Shown in pieces: positions 8,521 to 63,281 of a stretch of 64,000 nucleotides of DNA (its first letter is position 1; each line of letters starts with the position of its first letter). Below the pieces are notes generated by a model that saw nothing but the letters and a program-made list of their open reading frames with translations, ran no database searches and was not told where the DNA came from. The stretch is from Erythrobacter sp. (GTDB taxonomy: Bacteria > Pseudomonadota > Alphaproteobacteria > Sphingomonadales > Sphingomonadaceae): NCBI GenBank assembly GCA_030148605.1, contig JASBTD010000016.1, forward strand, positions 8,006-72,005, written 5' to 3'. The position numbers and the translations under genes are program-made.

Positions 8521-8521
<1 letters not shown>
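8048..8521 (-). CDS. RidA/YjgF/UK114-family protein with lipoprotein signal
   Basis: PFSDAV...LYLSG, FNAVYAEHF, YPARSAFG and VELEC. N-terminus is MRSAALVVLAAGLALGGC. The ATG overlaps the thiC stop (TGATG). Confidence 0.85.
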
Positions 8522-10645
<2,124 letters not shown>

Positions 10646-10731
10646 CAGGTCCTACCCGTTAGGGCGGACAAGGTAAAGCCGTCGCGCGCCATGATTGACT
10701 CGCGCCACACGCCGCTTCATGCCTTTGCACC

Positions 10732-13737: not shown

Positions 13738-14394
13738 CTAGCCTGCAGGCTGAGGGCGATAGGTTTCGCGCAAGTGCTTGAGCCCGGCTGATACGAATTC
13801 TGCCGCTTGCGGGGCCAGATCTTCCAGCTTCCCGCCGAGCCGCCCGTTGCGCCATTGATGGCACAGCAGTTCTGCCGGGCCCAGCATGAAAGACTGGATC
13901 ATCGCCGGGGGCAGCATCGGCAAGCGCCCTTCGGCCAGATGCGGCATCGCCCACTGCATCACCGGCTGCTCGATCTCGACTGCCAACTCGCTCCACATCG
14001 CCTTGTTCTGCGCGAGCCATTCCGAATGGCTGAATTGCGAGATCAGGCGGAAGTGGCGCTGCGGATCGCGCGCCTGAAACAGGATCGCCCCGCGCGCGCC
14101 CTCACCCATCGCATCGCAGGGGTCGCCCTTGTGGCTGATGATACATTGCCCGACATAGCCAAGATACTCGCTGCGCTCGCGCACGAAGATCGCTTCAAGC
14201 ACACCGTCTTTCGAACCGAAATGATGGAATATCGAGCCGTTCGAAACGCCTGAGCGATCGACCAGCTCTTTCATCGAGACATTTTCATGCCCCACTTCGA
14301 CCACGAGTTCGCTGGCGGCTTCCAGCACCTTTTCCCGTGTCGGTTTGCTCCGTGCCTGAACCATGTTTCGCCTGTGGCCTATTCGCTTGCTCAT
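13738..14394 (-). CDS. TetR/AcrR-family regulator (start may be about 10 codons downstream)
   Basis: VLEAASEL...VSMKELVDRSGVSNGSIFHHFGSKDGV helix-turn-helix. Confidence 0.9.
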   Translation of the reverse strand: MSKRIGHRRNMVQARSKPTREKVLEAASELVVEVGHENVSMKELVDRSGVSNGSIFHHFGSKDGVLEAIFVRERSEYLGYVGQCIISHKGDPCDAMGEGARGAILFQARDPQRHFRLISQFSHSEWLAQNKAMWSELAVEIEQPVMQWAMPHLAEGRLPMLPPAMIQSFMLGPAELLCHQWRNGRLGGKLEDLAPQAAEFVSAGLKHLRETYRPQPAG

Positions 14395-14399
14395 GTCAC

Positions 14400-14454
14400 T
14401 CTAGATTTATTTTCTAGATTGATGCTCTAGACTATCGATCTATTTTTGTCTAGA
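14400..14454. promoter_or_regulatory. TAGA-N7-TCTA operator array (4 x TCTAGA)
   Basis: TCTAGA at 14400, 14413, 14426 and 14449, in the intergenic region between the divergent tetR and repeat-protein genes. Confidence 0.65.
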
Positions 14455-14522
14455 GGGTGATTCGTTCGCGACGCAAAGCGCGACTGATTCGAAACGACAG
14501 AGAGACATTTGGAGAGAGACCC

Positions 14523-15452
14523 ATGACCAGTAATACAAAGACCCGTTCGCACCTCACGCTGCTGCTGGCAGGCGTTGCCATGGCCGGGGCTGCGGCCACG
14601 CCGGCGCAGGCCGGCCCGTTCGATTTCATCAAGCGCGCGGTCAAACAGGAACTGAAAGAGACATTTGAAGCGACGACGGAAAGCGTGGTTGAAAGCGCAA
14701 TGCAGACTGCGGTCGAGACCACTTTCAAGGTCGAGAAAGGCGAGCAGGCACAGGCAAGCCGCGAAGGCTTCCGTCAGGAAGGCCACACCACTGTCGGCAC
14801 TGCAGATGATATCCAGGCGCCCGAGCTGGCTCAGGCACAGGTCGGTCGCGGCCGCACTCAGGCACGCGCCGGCATCGGTGAAGCCATGACCAGCCAGAAC
14901 GGCACCACGGTGGAAACTGCCAGCGAAGTGCAGAGCGATCCAGCTGCGACAGCTGCCGATGCTGAGCCGCAGGACGCCTTCATGACCTTTAACGGCCCAG
15001 ATGCAGCTGCGCGTTCAAGTGTGCAGTATCCGTATCGGCTTGAAAACAAGATGAGCCAGAACGGAACCACGGTTGAAACCGCCAGCGAAGTGCAAGCTCA
15101 ACAGCGCCCGCAGGCTGTCCCGCCCTCTCAAACCAAGGGCAAAGTGGAAGCCACTTGGAAGTTAGAAGAGGGCGAAGCCGCGGCAGCCGGTGGCGGTGCT
15201 GCCGGCGCCGGGAAGGCAACGTTCAAGGAGTATCGAACGAACCCGGCTCGCGCCCGGATGAGCCAGAACGGCACCACGGTTGAAACCGCCAGCGAAGTGC
15301 AGGCTCCGCAGGCCGAACAGGCAGGACTGTTGCTACCTGCTGTTCAAGCCAATCGCGCGGCTTCACGCCCGCAACGTGGCAAGCTGAGCCAGAACGGCAC
15401 AACCGTCGCCACGGCAAACGAAGTGCAGGCGCCAAATCGCGAACGCGATTGA
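14523..15452 (+). CDS. Secreted repeat protein of unknown function
   Basis: Signal peptide ending AQA. Four SQNGTTV(E/A)TA(S/N)EVQ repeats plus one degenerate copy. Followed by a terminator. Confidence 0.8.
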   Translation: MTSNTKTRSHLTLLLAGVAMAGAAATPAQAGPFDFIKRAVKQELKETFEATTESVVESAMQTAVETTFKVEKGEQAQASREGFRQEGHTTVGTADDIQAPELAQAQVGRGRTQARAGIGEAMTSQNGTTVETASEVQSDPAATAADAEPQDAFMTFNGPDAAARSSVQYPYRLENKMSQNGTTVETASEVQAQQRPQAVPPSQTKGKVEATWKLEEGEAAAAGGGAAGAGKATFKEYRTNPARARMSQNGTTVETASEVQAPQAEQAGLLLPAVQANRAASRPQRGKLSQNGTTVATANEVQAPNRERD

Positions 15453-15475: not shown

Positions 15476-15506
15476 AAAGGGGCCTCGCCAAGCGCGGGGC
15501 CCCTTT
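15476..15506. terminator. Bidirectional intrinsic terminator
   Basis: aaaggggcc...ggccccttt stem between convergent genes. Confidence 0.7.
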
Positions 15507-15511
15507 CACAT

Positions 15512-15913
15512 TCACACGAAACGCATCATCCCTGCGCCCGCGAGAACCCAGCCGATCACCAGCGTGACCAGCGGCCAACCGCGCCGCATCGCCGCAAGGT
15601 TCTTGAGCCAGGTCTGGAAGTAAAGGTCCGATATCGCCATCACCACCAGCGCCTCAGCCATCATCAAGCCGCCGATCGTTTTCATCACCATCGACAGGAT
15701 GTCAGCCGAATCCCACGGATTGATGAGGTAAATCGCCGCACCGATAAAAAGTTCTGCAAAACCGCATAGCAATTGCAGCGCGGGCGAGGCTTCGATCTCG
15801 TCTACCATCTTGGCCCAGATGCCCGGCTGACGCAGCGCGCCGATGGCAACGGCAATCGCAAAGGCACCCAGCAAGGTCGCGCTCCAGGCGACTGTATCGA
15901 ATGTCGTTTCCAT
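15512..15913 (-). CDS. Hypothetical 4-TM membrane protein
   Basis: Hydrophobic helices; GGAGAG precedes ATG 15913. Confidence 0.7.
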   Translation of the reverse strand: METTFDTVAWSATLLGAFAIAVAIGALRQPGIWAKMVDEIEASPALQLLCGFAELFIGAAIYLINPWDSADILSMVMKTIGGLMMAEALVVMAISDLYFQTWLKNLAAMRRGWPLVTLVIGWVLAGAGMMRFV

Positions 15914-15941
15914 CGCTCTCCCCCCTTTCCGCGAGCGCGCC

Positions 15942-17498
15942 CTAACGCGCTGCCTCCAACTCGATCTTCCGCCGCGTTTCGCTGCAGCGCGGAGTATAGA
16001 CGAATTCCGCCGCGCTATAATCGATATGCGGGATCTCGTCCTTCTCGCGCCAGTAATCCTGATTGTGGCGCCATTCGGGCTTGTCACCGCGGCGCGGCAA
16101 TTGATCGAGCCCGCGCATCAGATAGCCGGGATTGAAATTGTCCGCTTCGATCCAGGGGTGGAGCTCCATCGCTTCATCTTCCGGCCGCAATGCCACTTCG
16201 ACCCGCGCCGCGTGCTCCTGGTCCATATGATTGAGCAAGCCGCAGACGAAATCGCCCAGCATGTCGACCCGCAAGGTCCAGCTGGCGCGGAAATAGCCGA
16301 ATACCCATGCCATATTGGGCACGCCGGTGAACATCATCCCGCGATAGGTGACTGTATCGTGCCAGTTCACTCGCTCGCCATCGACGAAGAAGGGGATGTC
16401 GCCCATCACCGACAGATGAAAGCCAGTCGCTGCCACGATCAGGTCAGCTTCGATGTCCTCGCCAGACGCGGTCCGCACGCCGCTTTCGGTAAAGCGGTCA
16501 ATCGTGTCTGTCACAACGGTCAGCTTGCCTTCCACTGCGGCGCGAAACACGTCGCCATCAGGGCAGAACGCCAGCCGCTGCTGCCACGGGCGGTATTTGG
16601 GGGTGAAGTGCGGTTCGAATTCAAAGTCCGGCTTGCCGGTGAATGCGCGGATCAACTCGCGCAGTTCCTCTACCACAACGTCCGGTTCTTCCTGACAGCG
16701 TTTGGTGAGCACATCCTGGTCATGCATGATTTGTGCGCGCACCACGCGGTGGATAGTCGGCTCGTCAATCCCCACTTCGCGCAAGCGATCAGCCAGCTCG
16801 TTCTTGTTCTCGCTGCAATAGAAATAGGTTGGCGAGCGCTGCAGCATGGTCACATGCGCGGCTTTCTCGGCAAATTCGGGCACCACCGTGGCCGCGGTCG
16901 CGCCAGAGCCGATCACCAGCACGCGCTTGCCGGCATAGTCATAATCCGGGTCCCACAGCTGGGCATGCACGAAATCGCCGCGGTAGTCTGACAGGCCTTT
17001 CTCCTGCCATTCAGGCGGTATGTACGGCGTTTCGTGATCGTAATAGCCCTGGCACATCCACAGGAAGTGGCAGGTGAAAGTGAAGCTGGCTCCATCCTCC
17101 AGCCGCTCGGCCTCGACTGTCCAGAGATTGGTCTCGCGCGAAAACGCACAGCTGGTGATCCGGTGACCATAGCGGATGTGATCGCCGATCCCGTTCTCTT
17201 CGATCACTTCGCCCATATATTTCAGGATCTCGTCCGCACTGGCGATCGGCGGGCCGATCCACGGCTTGAAGCGATAGCCGAAAGTGTAGAGATCACTGTC
17301 CGAGCGCACACCGGGATACTTGTGCGTTTCCCAAGTTCCGCCGAAGGTATCCTTCATTTCCAGGATGGCGTAGGTCTTGCCCGGGCATTGCTCCTGCAAA
17401 TGGTAGGCCGATCCGATCCCGGAAATCCCGGCTCCTGCAATCAGCACATCGAAATGCTGCGGGGCTGCATCCGGCCCGATACGTTCCATCGCGTTCAT
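15942..17498 (-). CDS. Flavin-containing monooxygenase (EthA/Baeyer-Villiger type)
   Basis: GAGISG, GGTW...YPGVRSDS, YRGDFVHAQLWDP (FxGxxxHxxxW variant) and GSGATA. Confidence 0.9.
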   Translation of the reverse strand: MNAMERIGPDAAPQHFDVLIAGAGISGIGSAYHLQEQCPGKTYAILEMKDTFGGTWETHKYPGVRSDSDLYTFGYRFKPWIGPPIASADEILKYMGEVIEENGIGDHIRYGHRITSCAFSRETNLWTVEAERLEDGASFTFTCHFLWMCQGYYDHETPYIPPEWQEKGLSDYRGDFVHAQLWDPDYDYAGKRVLVIGSGATAATVVPEFAEKAAHVTMLQRSPTYFYCSENKNELADRLREVGIDEPTIHRVVRAQIMHDQDVLTKRCQEEPDVVVEELRELIRAFTGKPDFEFEPHFTPKYRPWQQRLAFCPDGDVFRAAVEGKLTVVTDTIDRFTESGVRTASGEDIEADLIVAATGFHLSVMGDIPFFVDGERVNWHDTVTYRGMMFTGVPNMAWVFGYFRASWTLRVDMLGDFVCGLLNHMDQEHAARVEVALRPEDEAMELHPWIEADNFNPGYLMRGLDQLPRRGDKPEWRHNQDYWREKDEIPHIDYSAAEFVYTPRCSETRRKIELEAAR

Positions 17499-50676: not shown

Positions 50677-50750
50677 TGGAGCGGGTGAAGGGAATCGAAC
50701 CCTTGTCGTCAGCTTGGGAAGCTGCTGCTCTACCATTGAGCTACACCCGC
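50677..50750 (-). tRNA. tRNA-Gly (anticodon CCC)
   Basis: GCGGGTGTAGCTCAATGGTAGAGCAGCAGCTTCCCAAGCTGACGACAAGGGTTCGATTCCCTTCACCCGCTCCA folds as a cloverleaf with encoded CCA. Confidence 0.97.
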
Positions 50751-63010: not shown

Positions 63011-63202
63011 CCCCCTCTGTCGGGTGACCTGAGAGCTTAGCCCGCTGATCTGGCGGGCGTTCCCCTTCGGTGGTTCATGCCAGCCGCAAGAACGCTTTCC
63101 AGAGTGCCTACACACAAGCGGTCCATTTGCCTGAGAGTTTCCGGGGTGGTTGCTCCTTCGGCGTCGATTGGCCCCGAGGGGCTTCACGAACTCTCCCGCT
63201 GA
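63011..63202 (-). ncRNA. Tandem glycine riboswitch
   Basis: Two aptamers: GGGAGAG...GCCGAAGGAGCAA...CTCTCAGGC and TCTGGAAAG...CACCGAAGGGG...CTCTCAGGT...GACAGAGGGG. Confidence 0.93.
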
Positions 63203-63281
63203 TGTGTCTGCAGAATCGCTCCTGCAGCAGCCCCTTTGCTCTGCGCGATTCCTCGGAAAGCGTCAATTGGCGAACTTGGCG

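Follow-up and report, generated by a model that had tools for sequence, protein, structure and literature searches.

The 64,000-nucleotide stretch of Erythrobacter sp. DNA analysed here (contig JASBTD010000016.1, positions 8,006 to 72,005; hereafter the window) carries a gene for an exported protein of 309 amino acids (aa) in which copies of one spacer repeat alternate with short cassettes. Some of these cassettes resemble peptides of Hcp, the tube protein of type VI secretion systems (T6SS), and of the DUF1559-type pseudopilins of Planctomycetota. This anatomy, together with the origin of the cassettes in foreign peptides, we consider very probable. The features of the gene, in window coordinates, are the following, the four R repeats having been placed by a repeat search and in-frame translation:

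14523–15452, plus strand: gene of the exported repeat-and-cassette protein; ATG start, 309 aa, stop codon included
14523–14612, plus strand: Sec-type signal peptide, aa 1–30; predicted cleavage AQA|GP, read from the sequence
14622–14699, plus strand: conserved amphipathic helix after the signal, aa 34–59, FIKRAVKQELKETFE...; from AlphaFold and family alignments
14718–14744, plus strand: TTFKVEKGE, aa 66–74, a second but degenerate copy of the cassette from the Hcp C-terminus; marginal
14769–14822, plus strand: variant spacer repeat r, FRQEGHTTVGTADDIQAP, a degenerate fifth copy; same variant in 37/71 members of the family
14835–14870, plus strand: cassette AQVGRGRTQARA, copy of the Roseobacter-type Hcp extended loop; 10/12 identical to Hcp P0214
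14889–14933, plus strand: spacer repeat R1, TSQNGTTVETASEVQ
14913–15074, plus strand: 162-bp unit present or absent between natural alleles; one repeat period, that is, cassette 2 plus one repeat
14934–15050, plus strand: cassette 2, SDPAATAADAEPQDAFMTFNGPDAAARSSVQYPYRLENK, containing DAFMTFNG and YPYRLEN; motif ADAEPQDAFM(Y/T)F in 6 members
15051–15095, plus strand: spacer repeat R2, MSQNGTTVETASEVQ
15129–15179, plus strand: cassette QTKGKVEATWKLEEGEA, copy of the Pirellulales-type Hcp C-terminal strand; 10/17 identical, in 30/71 members
15189–15233, plus strand: GGGAAGAGKATFKEY, weakly like the Hcp extended loop and beta3; 13/26 identical to GGGAGAGKVKFDK of P0088
15258–15302, plus strand: spacer repeat R3, MSQNGTTVETASEVQ
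15324–15377, plus strand: cassette GLLLPAVQANRAASRPQR, copy of the alpha1-helix segment of Planctomycete DUF1559-type pseudopilins; LLLPAVQ in 65/71 members
15384–15428, plus strand: spacer repeat R4, LSQNGTTVATANEVQ

Read from the sequence, the N-terminus (MTSNTKTRSHLTLLLAGVAMAGAAATPAQA|GPFDF) shows the three regions of a Sec signal (n, h and AxA), and across 53 relatives P27, A28, A30 and G31 vary little or not at all, so that the signal peptide proposed in a first-pass annotation of this DNA holds up. The same annotation had described four in-frame repeats of ~45 bp with synonymous variation and a degenerate fifth copy, all of which were found. The DNA repeat search placed four copies in a 66-nt register at 14888, 15050, 15257 and 15383, with identities of 68–86%. 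They encode SQNGTTV(E/A)TA(S/N)EVQ, three of them giving the identical peptide SQNGTTVETASEVQ through synonymous differences (GGC/GGA, GTG/GTT, ACT/ACC and CAG/CAA) and the fourth giving SQNGTTVATANEVQ. The linkers between them measure 117, 162 and 81 bp, as had been reported, if the first unit is counted from 14889, and every linker peptide quoted is present. Judged from the sequence, the repeat pattern is well beyond chance, since it recurs in about 70 homologues at 83% amino acid identity with only 48% identical codons. Tandem Repeats Finder reported the operator region described below and none of the protein repeats, which it missed because they are interspersed and not tandem. A CRISPR-like reading as repeat plus spacer was discarded, as the repeats are in frame and vary synonymously and the linkers differ widely in length.

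The protein had been regarded as an orphan, which proved wrong: protein and profile searches found ~70 relatives, nearly all in Erythrobacteraceae, Sphingomicrobium and Novosphingobium-like bacteria, and always exported. A word-indexed search of 5.8 billion proteins returned 53 relatives, and an exhaustive profile search of 1.84 billion cluster representatives gave 54 matches with E<=1e-3 and 41 with E<=1e-10, the best relatives of the window protein having E values of 2.5e-144 to 1e-30. The repeat-and-cassette family is real but very small, its named sources being Altererythrobacter, Qipengyuania and Sphingomicrobium. Species-representative genomes searched with a degenerate DNA pattern for QNGTTVxTA gave multi-copy loci only in Qipengyuania, Erythrobacter, Altererythrobacter and Novosphingobium-labelled metagenome-assembled genomes (MAGs), apart from unrelated Pseudomonas adhesin repeats. 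In these last loci, of the Pseudomonas fluorescens type (L023 3470–3786; L035 2812–3394; L262; L275), QNGTT(V/I)ETAV recurs every 291 bp as part of 97-aa adhesin-like repeats, a chance likeness to the spacer repeat. Outside Sphingomonadales the spacer-repeat motif was found just once, in P0063, a protein with a Planctomycete-type N-terminus (RFRIETMEARRLMA) and four copies of GLSQRGTTVETADEVLAPELETEPKPT. Carriage by phages was rejected, the viral contigs having given one chance-level match. We found no papers on DUF6799, the Pfam family to which the repeat shows a sub-threshold likeness (see below), or on the peptide strings of the family.

For the architecture counts, 71 members were split at the repeat. 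The family spacer unit is 15–24 aa long, (PQRPQRAK)[ML]SQNGTTVxTAxEVQAP, with the repeat R (QNGTTVxTAxEVQAP) in 66 of the 71 members and the variant r (FRQEGGTTVPTADDVQAP) in 37. Between these units the commoner cassettes are LLLPAVQ (65 members), the FG-GAP-like GDVNGDG (32), KGKVEA(T/S)WKVEEGE (30) and QVGRGRxRARA (14), followed by GDEHEITYDIAAG (11), (A/G)Y(I/L)K(F/I)DG(V/I)xGE (11), GGGIYN (10), GGGLWN (9) and GPHVKV(F/I)DG (9) and by the rarer HKDWIII (8), LDKASP (6), GAGKVKF (5) and RTX (3). Beyond the cassettes of the window protein, relatives carry N-termini of Hcp, its HKDWI strand and LDKASP helix, calcium loops of FG-GAP and RTX type, and the beta-helix-like GGGIYN and GGGLWN. The window protein itself has all four features of the family, namely the ...PA(H/Q)A|GP signal, the amphipathic helix, at least two QNGTTVxTAxEVQAP units and the LLLPAVQ cassette. 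At the other extreme, the minimal members P0054, P0067 and L024 have no cassette and are built of a signal peptide and 24-aa units (PQRPQRAKMSQNGTTVATASEVQA) in tandem. Members of one clade keep their cassettes in collinear order, and this order differs from clade to clade. Pfam recognised FG-GAP in 19–22 members and RTX in one, NCBIfam gave nothing meaningful for 53 members, and a PDB sequence search with P0037 gave only weak matches to integrin FG-GAP. The members of Sphingomicrobium type (P0025, P0027, P0028, P0035, P0037, P0042, P0071 and P0075) have two nearly invariant cysteines (…GPGLCKLVQNGTTV… and …ACxMAxLVQNGTTV…) flanking one repeat and the WSR cassette, and this pair may form a disulfide loop, which would fit an exported protein. 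All these data bear out the earlier description of a modular, exported protein, with a conserved signal and interchangeable linkers.

The first-pass annotation had also likened four linker segments to Hcp, and this stood for some of them. We compared each linker with a profile of 14 Hcp sequences and scored 1000 shuffles of that linker in the same way. The cassette QTKGKVEATWKLEEGEA (the KGKVEATWKLEEGE cassette) is identical at 10 of 17 positions to the last 17 residues of a Novipirellula Hcp (pairwise E 1e-4), and in the window protein SPECIFICALLY it gave an hhalign E of 5e-4, with 0/1000 shuffles equalling its score. The cassette AQVGRGRTQARA, overlooked in the first reading, matches Hcp P0214 of Litorisediminicola at 10 of 12 positions, with 1/1000 shuffles reaching its score, and it corresponds in position to the beta2-beta3 loop of Hcp1 (PDB 1Y12). 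The degenerate TTFKVEKGE is a weaker case (BLASTP E 0.06 against the Planctomycete Hcp P0102, Hcp profile positions 145–160, 33/1000 shuffles scoring equally). The segment GGGAAGAGKATF/GGGAAGAGKATFKE aligns only weakly with the Hcp extended loop, with 13 of 26 residues identical and a pairwise E of 63; its equivalent in P0028 and P0037 (GGAGGAGKVKFDRLSIKK) is part of their T6SS_HCP match, the likeness being weak for the window protein alone. The claim failed for DAFMTFNG and YPYRLEN, since 147/1000 shuffles scored as well as the cassette 2 linker against the Hcp profile and cassette 2 had no match among PDB sequences. The four Hcp-like pieces of the window protein, when joined, matched nothing in Pfam. 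The resemblance to pilins was confirmed: the window segment GLLLPAVQANRAASR contains the invariant LLLPAVQ, and among the matches listed the peptide LLLPAVQAAREAAR stands in Planctomycetota directly after the prepilin motif in 126 of 133 occurrences. By these comparisons the supported foreign matches of the window protein are KGKVEATWKLEEGE, AQVGRGRTQARA and LLLPAVQ, and DAFMTFNG and YPYRLEN are not supported.

A back-translated LLLPAVQAAREAAR pattern found at least 120 loci, all but one of those among the matches listed being Planctomycetota. The prepilin motif that it follows is F[TS]L[IV]EL[LM]VV, near the start of open reading frames of ~370 aa, a position that identifies the LLLPAVQ cassette as the alpha1-helix segment of DUF1559-type pseudopilins. 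Outside this setting, P0077, P0081 and P0085, which have Planctomycete-style N-termini (...FERLDDRLCLS), contain 4–7 internal tandem LIGLLLPAVQKVRDAAAR units in a non-pilin, RTX-like context, so that the pseudopilin helix motif serves as an internal repeated module outside the Sphingomonadales family too, and other Planctomycete-like proteins carry tandem LLLPAVQKVRDAAAR or SQRGTTVETADEVLAPE units.

The Hcp cassettes come from at least two types of Hcp. A composite of Hcp-like cassettes (type 1) retrieved 324 proteins, with PF05638 in all 120 matches listed, the named ones among these being mostly from Novipirellula, Stieleria, Pirellulaceae, Phycisphaera and Luteolibacter. The type 1 proteins have 160 aa, start with MAAYIKFDGVDGE and end with KKKGNVEYSWKVEEGES, and the relative P0028 agrees with a Novipirellula Hcp in 17/17 C-terminal positions, in 11/14 N-terminal ones and in 11/22 of the helix KELDKSSPKIAEA. 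The Hcp of Novipirellula artificiosorum (L247 5001–5483), whose termini are the ones copied, lies between two giant genes (>1600 aa, one with faint VWA matches) with no T6SS core genes within 5 kb, and it may therefore act outside a canonical T6SS. A composite of the remaining cassettes retrieved type 2, Hcp proteins of 162 aa from Shimia and Litorisediminicola that start with (A)LTGYLKI.DIPGES, contain SAAQVGRGRARARAQV and end with DDHSAGDEHEITYDIAAGV, and that are the source of the cassettes LTGYLKIDDIPGES, AQVGRGRARARAQV and AGDEHEITYDIAAGV. In species genomes the exact GDEHEITYDIAAG was present only in seven Rhodobacterales and one Puniceicoccaceae MAG, and in Shimia sp. MIT1388 the type 2 gene belongs to a tssB-tssC-hcp-tssE-tssF-tssG cluster. 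When the two types are aligned, KGNVEYSWKVEEGES and AGDEHEITYDIAAGV fall on the same C-terminal strand and GRGRARARAQV and GGGAGAGKVKF on the same extended loop, which in Hcp1 of P. aeruginosa (PDB 1Y12, E 1e-42) are residues ~150–163 and ~40–53, respectively. The inner-ring residues L28, A29, S31 and T59, important for cargo binding, flank this extended loop (PMC8262886). Furthermore, P0008 and P0016 end in ...AGDEHEITYDIAAGV (...YDIAAGV), exactly as the Roseobacter-type Hcp proteins P0208–P0221 do, and by this alignment they reproduce the free C-terminus of Hcp and go beyond an internal copy of it.

Comparison of natural alleles shows that the 45–66-nt DNA repeats are recombination sites at which cassettes are added, deleted and swapped. 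The allele L004, from a JGI metagenome, has 98% identity to the window gene, from which it differs in 12 codons (8 synonymously, 4 non-synonymously), and it lacks exactly 162 bp, positions 14913–15074 of the window. Among Logan contigs, runs from ballast water and lagoon water hold the long allele and the marine run X11 the 14912>15075 joint, and a single aquatic run (X8) holds both alleles, its depth falling from ~20 to ~6 across the unit; the gene is thus carried in natural marine and brackish populations. Within the clade of the window protein, the slot after the first R repeat in shorter relatives is equivalent to the slot between R2 and R3 in the window, and it is filled by KGKVEATWK in P0003 as in the window protein, by LLLPAVQ in P0005 and P0009 and by EWSRVKN in P0006.

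The peptides, on the other hand, are kept. The 17/17 Hcp peptide of P0028 is encoded by DNA that shares only 38 of 51 bases and 8 of 17 third positions with the Hcp gene, with two serine codon-family switches; for the single donor tested, these scrambled synonymous sites speak against Hcp DNA having been acquired horizontally in recent times, and they indicate selection on the peptide. Twelve instances of LLLPAVQ, drawn from nine genes of different genera, do not vary at all, with codons at conserved degenerate residues being identical in 40% of cases. In the same number of genes the repeat has 83% mean amino acid identity and 48% identical codons at such residues, and the Hcp C-terminal cassette 82% and 63%. 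High peptide identity with low codon identity implies purifying selection on the peptide for repeats and cassettes alike. The window gene is real and under selection.

No fold was predicted for this chain. AlphaFold2 models from shallow, shuffled alignments reached a pLDDT of 54 and a pTM of 0.19 for the window protein (53 sequences) and 34 and 0.18 for P0028 (10-sequence collinear alignment), and neither monomer model showed a confident fold, a beta-barrel or a beta-solenoid. The elements seen in the window protein were helices at 34–59 and 272–280, the second being the LLLPAVQANRAA segment, and, in the last repeat, a very small hairpin. Ala makes up 17% of the mature protein and Thr, Glu and Gln 10% each, and aromatic or large aliphatic residues are scarce. 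The models suggest that the protein is likely disordered.

Around the gene lie three further features:

13738–14394, minus strand: gene of a divergent TetR-family regulator; Pfam TetR_N E 7e-14
14396–14470, no strand: TCTAGA-type half-site array in the shared promoter region, putative TetR operator; inverted repeats
15476–15506, no strand: 13-bp GC-rich hairpin between convergent genes; −30.2 kcal/mol, z-score −3.25

The TetR gene is directly upstream and divergent also in L001, L002, L243 and L289, the orthologue of the last, a Novosphingobium-like contig, being 60% identical, and it is the only gene that stays adjacent to the family across clades. The array GTCACTCTAGA-N8/9-TCTAGATT-N5/6-CTCTAGAC-N6-CTCTA-N6/7-CTAGAGGGTGATTCGT is kept in five genomes, that of the window and these four (L001 7840–7930; L002 7870–7950; L243 6900–6975; L289 1430–1505), the Novosphingobium-like contig included. 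It comprises four or five CTCTAGA/TCTAGAG half-sites followed by GGGTGATTCGT, is conserved across at least four genera, and is probably the operator to which TetR would bind together with the start of the 5' untranslated region. The hairpin is likely a bidirectional terminator of the gene and of the small membrane-protein gene at 15512–16087 (minus strand). A consensus promoter and terminator scan of the region called nothing, the hairpin having been missed because no T-run follows it on the plus strand.

In the window the gene order is thiC, a DUF6445 gene, P450, GST, TetR (minus strand), the repeat gene (plus strand), the small membrane protein (minus strand), a flavin monooxygenase (minus strand) and a large Trans_reg_C protein, and the thiC neighbourhood is common to Altererythrobacter, Qipengyuania and Sphingomicrobium. 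The presence of the gene is patchy, as among 80 loci syntenic for the flavin monooxygenase only that of A. litoralis carries it. A link to the monooxygenase and P450 was for this reason rejected as coincidental synteny; neither of them lies beside the gene in Sphingomicrobium, Q. vesicularis or the Novosphingobium-like contig. A link to an S9 peptidase was also dropped, because the adjacency is not conserved (2 of 9 loci examined). The 64-kb window has no Hcp gene, no T6SS gene (in agreement with what had been noted from the sequence) and no paralogue, and the loci examined in relatives have no T6SS or Hcp gene either. The gene region had no Rfam match, and an RNA element was rejected. Elsewhere in the window there are a tRNA-Gly(ccc) gene (50677–50750, minus strand) and a glycine riboswitch (63109–63208, minus strand), and no TPP riboswitch reached the gathering threshold upstream of thiC (8521–10554, minus strand; region 8521–10730). 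The PADLOC anti-phage models matched neither the window protein nor P0028, P0037 or P0011.

Taken as a whole, the explanation that we prefer, and that we advance tentatively as a possible one, is that the gene product is an exported, intrinsically disordered protein resembling beads on a string. The string would be the family-specific repeat unit and the beads short copies of conserved peptides from the exported machines of other bacteria, in the window those of the C-terminal strand and the extended loop from two Hcp subfamilies, along with the alpha1-helix segment found in DUF1559 pseudopilins of Planctomycetes. Expression would be controlled by the divergent TetR through the conserved operator array, and the peptides might be displayed in the periplasm or outside the cell as linear-motif mimics, so that the protein could serve as polyvalent decoy, competitor or binder towards anything that recognises these segments in the T6SS tubes, cargo or pilus-like fibres of rivals. 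The exported protein itself would form no Hcp tube, pilus, amyloid or modified peptide. Mimicry is suggested by the collection of the same Hcp elements (termini and extended loop) from two unrelated Hcp lineages, by the ends of P0008 and P0016, which are exactly those of the copied Hcp, and by the rapid turnover of the cassette repertoire. As a function read from sequence alone, however, mimicry or decoy activity is rather doubtful. In its boldest form, which we think improbable, the protein would be a germline-encoded, polyvalent library of enemy epitopes, an exported decoy bearing Hcp peptides of the ring interface and the lumen lining, as well as motifs of pseudopilins and adhesins. Once the cell had been struck by a T6SS, the decoy would bind the arriving tubes or their cargo in its periplasm, or those components extracellularly, giving broad-spectrum protection against contact-dependent attack independently of immunity proteins, and recombination at the spacer repeats would gain or lose cassettes as local competitors change.

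Several points weigh against a mimic or decoy. The Hcp evidence of the window protein itself comes down to two short cassettes of 7.5–7.8 bits, and in Pfam the protein gave only the sub-threshold DUF6799 match and no T6SS_HCP match, NCBIfam likewise giving nothing further. Multi-member cassettes arranged in Hcp order did match T6SS_HCP (8.7e-14, positions 1–72 of 129), but the order of this composite was chosen by us and its E-value shows that the pieces are Hcp-like, not that any protein is an Hcp. Recognition of cargo by Hcp is argued in published work to depend on fit to the lumen of the folded ring and not on linear motifs (PMC8262886). The low AlphaFold confidence may reflect the quality of the alignments instead of disorder. 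T6SS tubes are assembled in the cytoplasm of the attacker, beyond the reach of an exported protein. Evidence for transcription is weak, consisting of low-depth metatranscriptome contigs that cover parts of the gene, including the joint of the short allele (RNA run X26), and that could include DNA. Finally, the repeat-only members L024, P0054 and P0067 have no cassettes to display, so that the repeat must have a function of its own, which mimicry leaves unexplained.

This last point leads to the opposite view, in which the repeat is the working part, for instance of a hydrophilic, disordered envelope or periplasmic stress protein broadly like Asr of E. coli, and the cassettes are tolerated passengers of illegitimate recombination. 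The minimal members, which are just signal and tandem repeats, agree with it, as do the rank of the repeat as the most widely shared element (66/71, with the sub-threshold likeness to DUF6799 in 31/53), the control by a TetR regulator, which fits an inducible stress or xenobiotic response, and the lack of a predicted fold. The cassettes, however, are not decaying: LLLPAVQ is invariant in its 12 instances from 9 genes at 40% codon identity, and the 17/17 match to the Planctomycete Hcp has been kept despite scrambled synonymous sites. Moreover, random capture would hardly enrich in-frame conserved termini or take the same Hcp structural elements from two subfamilies, and we consider this view unlikely. 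We think it improbable that the protein is instead a multi-core peptide precursor, cut by a protease at ...RPQRAK|[ML]SQNG... and ...EVQAP| to release the cassettes as signals or inhibitors for neighbouring cells. Conserved flanks around variable cores are indeed found, as in cyanobactin and ustiloxin precursors, the residues before the repeat are regularly basic and the one after it is Pro, and a gene with PD40 and Peptidase_S9 domains is the immediate downstream neighbour in Sphingomicrobium and is found ~4 kb downstream in Altererythrobacter. This peptidase is, however, not beside the gene in L245 or among the predicted genes examined in ~5.7–28 kb of the window, and the loci examined conserve no radical SAM, YcaO, cyclase or transporter gene nearby, that is, none of the co-located maturation enzymes or transporters of a ribosomally synthesized and post-translationally modified peptide (RiPP). 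The signal is of the Sec type instead of a RiPP leader, and the repeat-only members would have no cores.

The differences in cassettes between close relatives, the two alleles in one sample and the export of the protein would also suit a polymorphic surface adhesin or kin-recognition protein, whose cassette set would confer strain-specific sticking and whose likeness to Hcp and pilins would be that of sticky segments in general. We regard this as very unlikely, since no lipobox, C-terminal sorting signal or beta-barrel anchors the protein and general stickiness does not explain exact identity to the termini of specific foreign Hcp proteins. Still less probable is the functional amyloid or self-assembling fibre with curlin-like Q-x-G...A...Q repeats that the first-pass annotation had proposed. 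It draws on the regular Gln/Asn/Thr-rich repeats and the small hairpin predicted at the last one, but it did not survive the comparison with known families (no match to Curlin_rpt or any other amyloid family in 53 members) or the structural models, which have no beta-solenoid; the spacing between repeats varies from 0 to >50 residues, and the window genes examined include no curli-type or Fap-type secretion genes nearby. A degenerate or divergent true Hcp, a T6SS component or a true pilin has a negligible probability. P0028 (28 bits), P0027 and P0037 do score above the Pfam T6SS_HCP cut-off, and NCBI names P0051 an Hcp family T6SS effector, but the matches span only profile positions 7–40 of 129, the Hcp pieces, taken from two subfamilies, do not stand in Hcp order, no fold is predicted, Hcp is made in the cytoplasm and does not carry a Sec signal, and the 64-kb window has no T6SS or Hcp gene. 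The prepilin G|FTLIE motif is not present either, and the globular domain of DUF1559 (PF07596) had no match in 53 members. The window protein is not an Hcp, a pilin or a curlin, the membership tests effectively refuting a true Hcp or pilin. As for P0051 (Sphingomicrobium arenosum; L244 7001–8071), it has a signal peptide, spacer repeats and only scattered Hcp fragments, and its NCBI label as an Hcp family type VI secretion system effector is probably a mis-annotation.

If mimicry is true, this would be a new way for bacteria to handle the contact weapons of rivals: one secreted protein would show conserved pieces of the weapon, replacing a cognate immunity protein for each toxin, and a built-in recombination scaffold would update the pieces displayed. 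Such an immunity-independent T6SS defence would be testable in culturable Qipengyuania or Altererythrobacter against T6SS-positive Shimia. Whatever its function, the family offers exact peptides of 12–17 aa conserved across phyla inside a protein that is likely disordered, natural repeat-mediated cassette shuffling in a free-living bacterium, and an annotation trap, as a protein named by NCBI as an Hcp effector fails every defining feature of Hcp tested here.

Several described systems share some of these properties. With Hcp/TssD (PF05638; PDB 1Y12) the family has in common the N-terminal strand, the HKDWI strand, the beta2-beta3 loop, the start of the LDKASP helix and the C-terminal strand, reproduced by cassettes with up to 17/17 identity. 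It differs in that the pieces, of 10–25 aa, do not follow the Hcp order, stem from two or more Hcp subfamilies and have unrelated repeats between them, and in that the window protein carries a Sec signal, lacks a beta-barrel fold and has no T6SS genes in its vicinity. The LLLPAVQ(A/K)(A/V)R(E)AA cassette equals the segment after the N-terminal motif in Planctomycete DUF1559/H-X9-DG prepilin-type proteins, whereas the window protein, from an alphaproteobacterial host, has neither the G|FTLIE cleavage and methylation motif nor the hydrophobic N-terminal half of the helix nor the DUF1559 domain. DUF6799 (PF20606) resembles the repeat, which matches profile positions 25–52 in 31/53 members (E<1), but about a third of the 63-position profile is matched with all scores below the gathering cut-off; the best score of the window protein is 24.3 against a cut-off of 26.8 bits (positions 25–43 of 63), and no member is better than E 2.6e-5.

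Multi-core RiPP precursors such as cyanobactin PatE and fungal ustiloxin UstA, which has an endoplasmic reticulum signal, also delimit variable cores by conserved flanks and vary in core number between alleles; in the present family the signal is of the Sec type, no conserved maturation enzymes were found and the cores are conserved foreign motifs instead of hypervariable ones. Direct repeats flanking exchangeable segments, and alleles differing by whole cassettes, recall Borrelia vlsE, a cassette-based variable surface protein, from which the family differs in showing no silent cassette archive, in changing apparently on an evolutionary or population timescale and in having free-living marine hosts. 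Colicins and pyocins have unstructured translocation domains, and the TolB-binding epitope of colicin E9 mimics Pal. These domains, and the short-linear-motif mimicry of pathogens, share with the family a disordered exported chain bearing short epitopes that copy proteins of other cells, and they would be its nearest functional analogies. In contrast to them, the family has no toxin or receptor-binding domain, arrays many motifs between copies of a dedicated spacer repeat and copies weapon and fibre subunits of rivals, not envelope proteins of the target, the function as a mimic being our inference. We know of no described system that arrays fragments like those of the T6SS tubes and pilins of rivals between copies of a dedicated spacer repeat, and the repeat-and-cassette architecture is new, unlike that of any described family.

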